Source of the DNA: Escherichia coli
GTDB taxonomy: Bacteria; Pseudomonadota; Gammaproteobacteria; Enterobacterales; Enterobacteriaceae
Assembly: GCF_048403405.1 (NCBI RefSeq)
Contig: NZ_CP183129.1
DNA: 64,000 nucleotides
Direction: 5' to 3' (one strand)
Below the pieces are notes generated by a model. That model was given only the letters and a program-made list of their open reading frames with translations, ran no database searches and was not told the DNA's origin. Position numbers and translations under genes: made by a program. This document shows, one piece after another, positions 47,503-47,990 of this stretch. Numbering within the stretch: the stretch's first letter is position 1; each line of letters starts with the position of its first letter.

Positions 47503-47664
47503 CTGAAACTGTCCAGGTTTTGGGGTTCAGTTCATACACGCCGCATCCGGCATAAACAAAGCGCACGTTGTTACAATTTACGTTTTAAACCTACGTGCGC
47601 AATAACCCAATAACCCAGACTACGCCAACAGAAGTGCGTTTCTGGGGCGTGTTTTGCCAGGAGT

Positions 47665-47877
47665 TTAATCTCGCGTTTCGATGGTGAGCGGGCGAACCAG
47701 ACCATAAATCACCATTGGCGTTCCGAGGCCAATCAGCAATAAACGGTAGATAATTGAAGGTTTAATACGCTTAATCTGTACTGTGGATGTTTTACTGGAG
47801 TTATTCATTAGTTTGGCCAATAGTTCCATTATTTCAATATGATAAGCCTCGCACTGTTGAAAAGCCAGGCTGCACAT
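47665..47877 (-). CDS. Hypothetical small protein, possibly spurious
   Basis: 70-aa ORF with hydrophobic C-terminal half between IS copy A and yiaW; no recognisable family. Confidence 0.2.
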   Translation of the reverse strand: MCSLAFQQCEAYHIEIMELLAKLMNNSSKTSTVQIKRIKPSIIYRLLLIGLGTPMVIYGLVRPLTIETRD

Positions 47878-47990
47878 TTCAGAAAGTATATAAAAAACAA
47901 TATGTCGTTATATAAATAAGGAAATTGCACCGCATTATGGTATTTCATAATATGCGTTAATTGTTCTTTTCTATATTCTCTGAGGGAAAT

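Follow-up and report, generated by a model that had tools for sequence, protein, structure and literature searches.

Gene relics and a REP-targeted IS1397 insertion in the aldB-yiaW spacer of Escherichia coli

Results

Layout of the locus

The window analyzed here is a stretch of 64,000 nucleotides from an E. coli chromosome, in which aldB (+ strand) is followed by an insertion sequence (IS) and then by yiaW (+), yiaV (+), yiaU (-) and yiaT (+). The first gene of yiaWV, yiaW (47991-48314, + strand), encodes a DUF3302 inner-membrane protein. Its ATG lies at 47991 and the right end of the IS at 47534, leaving exactly 456 bp (47535-47990) between them. A preliminary description had assigned to this segment half of a split REP sequence and a 70-codon minus-strand open reading frame (ORF), with coordinates that all proved correct. 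Its wording that the ORF and the yiaW promoter region lie immediately beside the IS is overstated, as 131 bp separate the IS end from the 3′ end of the ORF and about 350 bp separate it from the yiaW promoter block. We find that the 456 bp are an ordinary, decaying aldB-yiaW spacer composed of a REP half, the tail of a hicB gene and the relic of a second gene, here called orfX.

A scan of positions 45500-48500 with Rfam models gave no match within the 456-bp segment. At the first REP after aldB (45993-46067), a match to naRNA4 stays below threshold, with 29.7 bits where the gathering score is 59.5, and is consistent with a REP-derived element rather than a distinct sRNA gene. Two further features of the window lie upstream. 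A paralogous gene pair at 31297-32810, 16.6 kb upstream of yiaW-yiaV and with 73-86% DNA identity to it, is presumably yibI-yibH, judging from its position beside an ORF of 637 aa, the size of mtlA. A 1742-aa minus-strand ORF (19646-24874) contains five copies of a tandem unit of ~234 bp with 62-97% identity, as well as periodic repeats of 285-312 bp, and looks like the gene of a large repetitive surface adhesin.

An IS1397 copy splits a REP palindrome

The IS (copy A, 46103-47534, + strand) is a 1432-bp member of the IS3 family with 100% identity to annotated copies of IS1397. It has TG...CA ends and imperfect terminal inverted repeats (TGAACTG(C/A)ACCCCAAA), and its transposase is encoded on the + strand by orfA/orfB (46154-47502), with a slippery A AAA AAG heptamer at 46627-46633 in an A7G run at 46626-46633. 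Identical elements carry the RefSeq label 'IS3-like element IS1397 family transposase, programmed frameshift'. Length, identity, termini, the -1 frameshift motif and insertion into a REP loop all identify the element as IS1397.

Alignment with the empty sites of CFSAN061763 and K-12 reveals that copy A splits the REP palindrome GCCGGATAAGGCGTAC|ACGCCGCATCCGGCA, having entered the loop of the REP hairpin 97 bp past the aldB stop codon. The target, GCCGGATAAGGCG-TAC-ACGCCGCATCCGGC, carries a 3-bp duplication, with TAC present at both 46100-46102 and 47535-47537. The left REP half (46087-46102) ends in the first of these copies and the right half (47535-47552) opens with the second. Insertion of IS1397 is specific to REP sequences of E. 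coli (PMC1525189), and the split REP is thus the normal target of the element and no incidental neighbour. The preliminary description had noticed the split REP next to the IS, but had missed the identity of the element and with it this specificity.

Only six of 5426 complete E. coli genomes have the IS in the REP after aldB. One of them, TUM14771, has an IS1397 copy here (L089, 5710-7058) with an internal stop, which makes the transposase a pseudogene; in another, OX030728, the adjacent aldB (L088, 12449-13986) is annotated as frameshifted.

Remnants of hicB and the intact orfX gene

Beyond the right REP half lies the 3′ remnant of hicB (47586-47668, + strand), about its last 27 codons, as established by alignment with the intact hicA-hicB genes of CB7453, E1V33 and EC42405. 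This remnant has suffered an 8-bp duplication (47600-47607) and a 12-bp deletion after 47645, and the former stop codon is at 47666-47668. A HicB antitoxin gene comprises an ORF of ~136 aa with a HicB fold, paired with hicA; the window retains ~83-85 bp of the 3′ end and hicA is absent. With only this 3′ fragment of hicB and no hicA, a toxin-antitoxin function is impossible in the window.

Intact hicA-hicB genes follow aldB in about 500 E. coli genomes (506 in all), and there are at least three allele classes in the species at the aldB-yiaW spacer. In one, found in 28 genomes, the order is aldB-hicAB-orfX-yiaWVUT. Another, with the order aldB-REP-hicB tail-orfX relic-yiaWVUT, is present in ~3800 genomes including K-12, and a further class has aldB-hicAB-GH127 and lacks yiaWVUT. 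The REP entered by IS1397 is part of the DNA that occupies the place of hicA and hicB. The spacing between aldB and yiaW is 157-335 bp in Citrobacter and Pseudocitrobacter, and neither hicAB nor orfX is present there.

Where it is intact, orfX codes for 104 aa, with three transmembrane helices predicted; the gene converges on hicB and diverges from yiaW. Intact copies are carried by E. whittamii, by Escherichia sp. E1V33 and by 28 of the 5426 complete E. coli genomes, an example being EC42405, where the arrangement is aldB-hicA-hicB/orfX/yiaW and the orfX product is WP_001064341.1. Three such copies, each encoding 104 aa on the minus strand, are at 1469-1783 of L096 (EC42405), 2504-2818 of L009 and 777-1091 of L008 (E1V33). 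The pN/pS ratio of orfX is 0.12 in frame versus 1.7-8 in shifted frames, a pattern by which the intact gene is real and under purifying selection. An exhaustive HMMER search returned relatives in 169 clusters, full-length and of ~100 aa, that share the motifs IYKLxFIGL, GxDTVxWN, HG and GLWxxSxxRPL. Searches of the intact protein against Pfam and NCBIfam gave no match, and Pfam searches with ten remote relatives produced sub-threshold noise only. The relatives of orfX are an undescribed family of small membrane proteins, whose gene stands tail-to-tail with hicB at this locus.

The small minus-strand ORF is a relic of orfX

The 70-aa minus-strand ORF with a hydrophobic tail that the preliminary description reported is present at 47665-47877, with an ATG start and the hydrophobic stretch PSIIYRLLLIGLGTPMVIYGLV. 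ORFs reach 70 aa or more in 352 of 3000 shuffled versions of the 456 bp (12%) and 47 aa or more in 57% of them, so the length by itself is within chance. The upstream 23 codons of the 70-aa reading (47809-47877) are non-coding; they contain stops in four of eight E. coli alleles, and their substitutions are mostly non-synonymous. With these stops upstream, the sole conserved start is the ATG at 47808 and not that at 47877, and the ATG at 47808 is also the start chosen by PGAP.

Read from this ATG, the frame (47665-47808, minus strand) has 47 codons and is annotated by PGAP as a 'hypothetical protein' (WP_001066082.1). It retains the N-terminus of the orfX product, transmembrane helix 1 and the last nine residues. 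The window and K-12 lack exactly 171 bp from the middle of orfX, an in-frame loss of 57 codons (codons 39-95 of 104) whose junction at 47694-47701 lies between short AACCAG direct repeats. Membership of the family calls for a full-length alignment over ~95 residues with three helices and the WN, HG and GLW...RPL motifs, a combination that the window copy does not possess. Searches of the 70-aa ORF and of a 44-aa ORF against Pfam and NCBIfam gave no match.

The truncated frame evolves differently from its neighbour. Across eight E. coli alleles, 13 of its segregating sites are non-synonymous and 5 are synonymous (pN/pS = 0.83), versus 3 non-synonymous and 17 synonymous sites in yiaW of the same genomes (pN/pS 0.06; Fisher p = 7e-4), and the purifying selection expected of a functional small-protein gene is not seen. 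For codons 11-47 of the relic the ratio is 0.42, a value that comes from few sites and may reflect weak residual constraint. A dN/dS of 0.11 for the 47-codon frame between the window and K-12 was set aside, as it derives from only four substitutions and is misleading against the eight-allele result. In Escherichia sp. MOD1-EC7003, an independent deletion of 47701-47885 takes out the body of the relic.

These patterns of variation indicate that the relic is probably a non-functional pseudogene that drifts neutrally, and nothing but its shortness keeps the frame open. The possibility of a spurious ORF, raised in the preliminary description, is thereby borne out as to function, but not as to origin. 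A pure chance frame in AT-rich intergenic DNA would accord with the frequency of long ORFs in the shuffled sequences and with the absence of Pfam and NCBIfam matches. However, the ORF is collinear with both ends of a constrained 104-aa gene at the same position, with 85-90% amino-acid identity, and these intact orthologues refute the chance-frame reading, to which we give almost no weight. We consider it distinctly improbable that the ORF, in its 47-aa or its 70-aa form, encodes a functional small membrane protein and is transcribed divergently from yiaW. The 47-codon frame is open in all eight sampled alleles, PGAP annotates the ORF in most genomes, a transmembrane helix is kept, and promoter-like minus-strand sites exist in 47810-47973. 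Against this, the pN/pS of the relic resembles that of off-frames, 57 of the 104 ancestral codons and two of the three helices are gone, frameshifted and fused variants occur, MOD1-EC7003 has lost the ORF entirely, and the curated RefSeq record of K-12 MG1655 leaves it unannotated; the 70-aa form is further burdened by its stops in half of the alleles.

The yiaWV promoter region and the insertion sequence

Only one part of the spacer, 47886-47953, is conserved into Citrobacter and Pseudocitrobacter, and this block is 350-420 bp from the IS. The deletion in MOD1-EC7003 ends exactly at its left edge. The block contains the inverted repeat TATATAA-N14-TTATATA (47887-47914), conserved in Escherichia, Citrobacter and Pseudocitrobacter and located upstream of a putative -35 element; it may be the binding site of a regulator of yiaW. 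Next to it is a putative promoter, TTGCAC-17-TAATAT (47925-47953, + strand), which has the second-best position-weight-matrix score in the region and a position conserved in three genera. It thus combines -35 and -10 hexamers with a spacing within the 16-18 bp of sigma-70 promoters at an orthologous position, and a ribosome-binding site, GAGGG, follows the conserved block.

Genomic SELEX has located a constitutive RpoD promoter for yiaWV in the aldB-yiaW spacer, which is bound by H-NS, although at low resolution (PMC3946193). The hexamers given there, CAGACA-17-TATAAA, are present in K-12 and map to ~47866-47894 of the window, where a search allowing at most one mismatch did not find them; the -35 element at this place is CAGGCT. 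Since the -35 of the SELEX study is changed in the window, the conserved TTGCAC-17-TAATAT is preferred, and conservation together with consensus matching makes it the best-supported candidate for the yiaWV promoter. In previous studies, IS1 is reported to have inserted within yiaW itself, in its coding region, during adaptation to macrophages (PMC3861542, PMC5495878), and YiaU to control yiaT (PMC9068703); neither finding bears on the IS1397 site.

The preliminary description had proposed that the IS displaced or supplied promoter elements for yiaW-yiaV. Displacement is contradicted by the IS-free strain CFSAN061763, which has the same 455 bp with 100% identity, and by the distance of 350-420 bp to the conserved block. 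A supplied hybrid promoter fares no better. The best pair of hexamers spanning the junction, TTCAGT-19-CATAAA, scores -1.18, a value at chance level that falls within the top 2.9% of sites across the window, and a consensus scan across the IS junction found no hybrid promoter. The junction is 456 bp from the yiaW ATG, at least 330 bp separate the IS end from every promoter candidate of yiaW, and nothing at the junction has the character of an IS-generated hybrid or outward promoter. When RNA spanning the junction of IS and flank was folded, neither a significant structure nor a terminator emerged (z = -1.04). Because the segment is identical to the IS-free allele and the predicted promoter is in the conserved block, the IS appears to have no direct effect on the yiaW promoter.

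It is unlikely, too, that the IS alters yiaWV expression by other routes, be it by a promoter at its right end, outward or hybrid, or by transcripts of the transposase gene or aldB that continue across the 456 bp. Such read-through would be helped by the common orientation of the IS, aldB and yiaW on the + strand and by the lack of any predicted + strand intrinsic terminator between IS and yiaW (47534-47990), and the right ends of IS3-family elements carry a -35 that is active in circle junctions. However, transposase transcription in elements of this family is normally weak, the junction pair scores at chance level, the junction is separated from the start codon by 456 bp and two gene relics, and the native conserved promoter block of yiaW is intact.

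A second IS1397 copy and an inverted cassette

A second IS1397 (copy B, 51362-52793, minus strand), identical to copy A and in inverted orientation, occupies another REP between yiaT and a GH127 gene. Its target is again a REP loop, GCCTGATAAGACGT-GTTA-AGCGTCGCATCAGGC, with a 4-bp duplication, and an empty site is available for comparison. Together the two copies bracket 3827 bp that include the relic ORF, yiaW, yiaV, yiaU and yiaT.

The six genomes with the IS at the aldB site fall into three equal groups. GN02461 and TUM14771 have copy A alone, and 4621 and TUM1226 have both copies in the arrangement of the window. MS 69-1 and OX030728 also have both, but the 3.8 kb between them is turned round and the target duplications have changed places. 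Inversion together with swapped duplications is characteristic of homologous recombination between the two copies. Related genomes form a stepwise series, from copy A only, to A and B, to A and B with the cassette inverted, and the relic-yiaW-yiaV-yiaU-yiaT cassette occurs in both orientations among four closely related genomes.

That the inverted copies serve as a recombinational switch, with the 3.8-kb flip giving yiaWV the GH127 sugar operon in place of aldB as its upstream transcriptional context, is a speculation to which we assign very little probability. If it were true, transcription running on through the IS and the 456-bp relic region would alter the expression of envelope proteins between subclones.

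Discussion

We conclude with considerable confidence that the region upstream of yiaW is a decayed aldB-yiaW spacer into whose far end IS1397 has recently inserted in a site-specific manner. The ancestral state would be the direct adjacency of aldB and yiaW, as in Citrobacter and Pseudocitrobacter. A three-gene module of hicA, hicB and orfX may then have been inserted in the Escherichia lineage, although we infer this order of events, as opposed to loss of the module in other genera, from few taxa. In most E. coli, a REP unit has taken the place of hicA and most of hicB, leaving ~85 bp of the hicB 3′ end, and a 171-bp in-frame deletion between the AACCAG repeats has reduced orfX to 47 codons, a relic that now probably drifts neutrally. 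IS1397 entered the REP with a 3-bp duplication, and a second copy later entered the REP beyond yiaT. The consequences of the insertion at aldB may amount at most to weak added read-through transcription and to the removal of the REP from the aldB 3′ end.

All components of the locus are of known kinds: a REP occupied by IS1397, what is left of a toxin-antitoxin pair, a gene with an internal deletion, and an inversion polymorphism between IS copies. The locus is in this sense ordinary, and it offers a textbook case of REP-specific IS1397 transposition, of the decay of a toxin-antitoxin module and its neighbour, and of IS-mediated inversion. One practical consequence concerns the 47-aa 'hypothetical protein' upstream of yiaW, which is automatically annotated in thousands of E. 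coli genomes and is best treated as a pseudogene relic. In addition, the putative control region of yiaWV is narrowed to ~105 bp (47886-47990), including the conserved inverted repeat, and an invertible 3.8-kb cassette bounded by IS1397 has been documented as a by-product.

Comparison with known systems

The segment at 47586-47668 matches the last ~27 codons of hicB, its stop codon and 30 bp beyond, as found in the HicAB type II toxin-antitoxin locus that follows aldB in other strains. However, the window holds only this frameshifted 3′ fragment, with no hicA and no N-terminal domain of hicB. The relic likewise shares with the 104-aa orfX gene its start, N-terminus, first helix, last nine residues and stop codon, but the 57 deleted internal codons included two helices and the conserved GxDxVxWN/HG motifs, and orfX is under purifying selection whereas the relic appears to evolve neutrally.

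Promoters created by IS1, IS2, IS3 and IS5 resemble the present case in that the IS end faces a downstream gene of the same orientation. Here, however, the gap measures 456 bp instead of tens of bp, the junction forms no consensus-like hybrid, and the native promoter is intact. The inverted pair of identical IS1397 copies, with two genomes flipped and their duplications exchanged, resembles inversions known between inverted IS copies; neither a dedicated invertase nor evidence of regulated switching accompanies it, and the window represents the un-inverted state. The closest correspondence is with IS1397 itself. At 1432 bp, with 99-100% nucleotide identity to annotated copies and a two-ORF transposase with a programmed frameshift, the element is without differences from them, and both copies in the window are centred in a palindromic unit with duplications of 3 or 4 bp; the REP after aldB is simply a rare site for its insertion.
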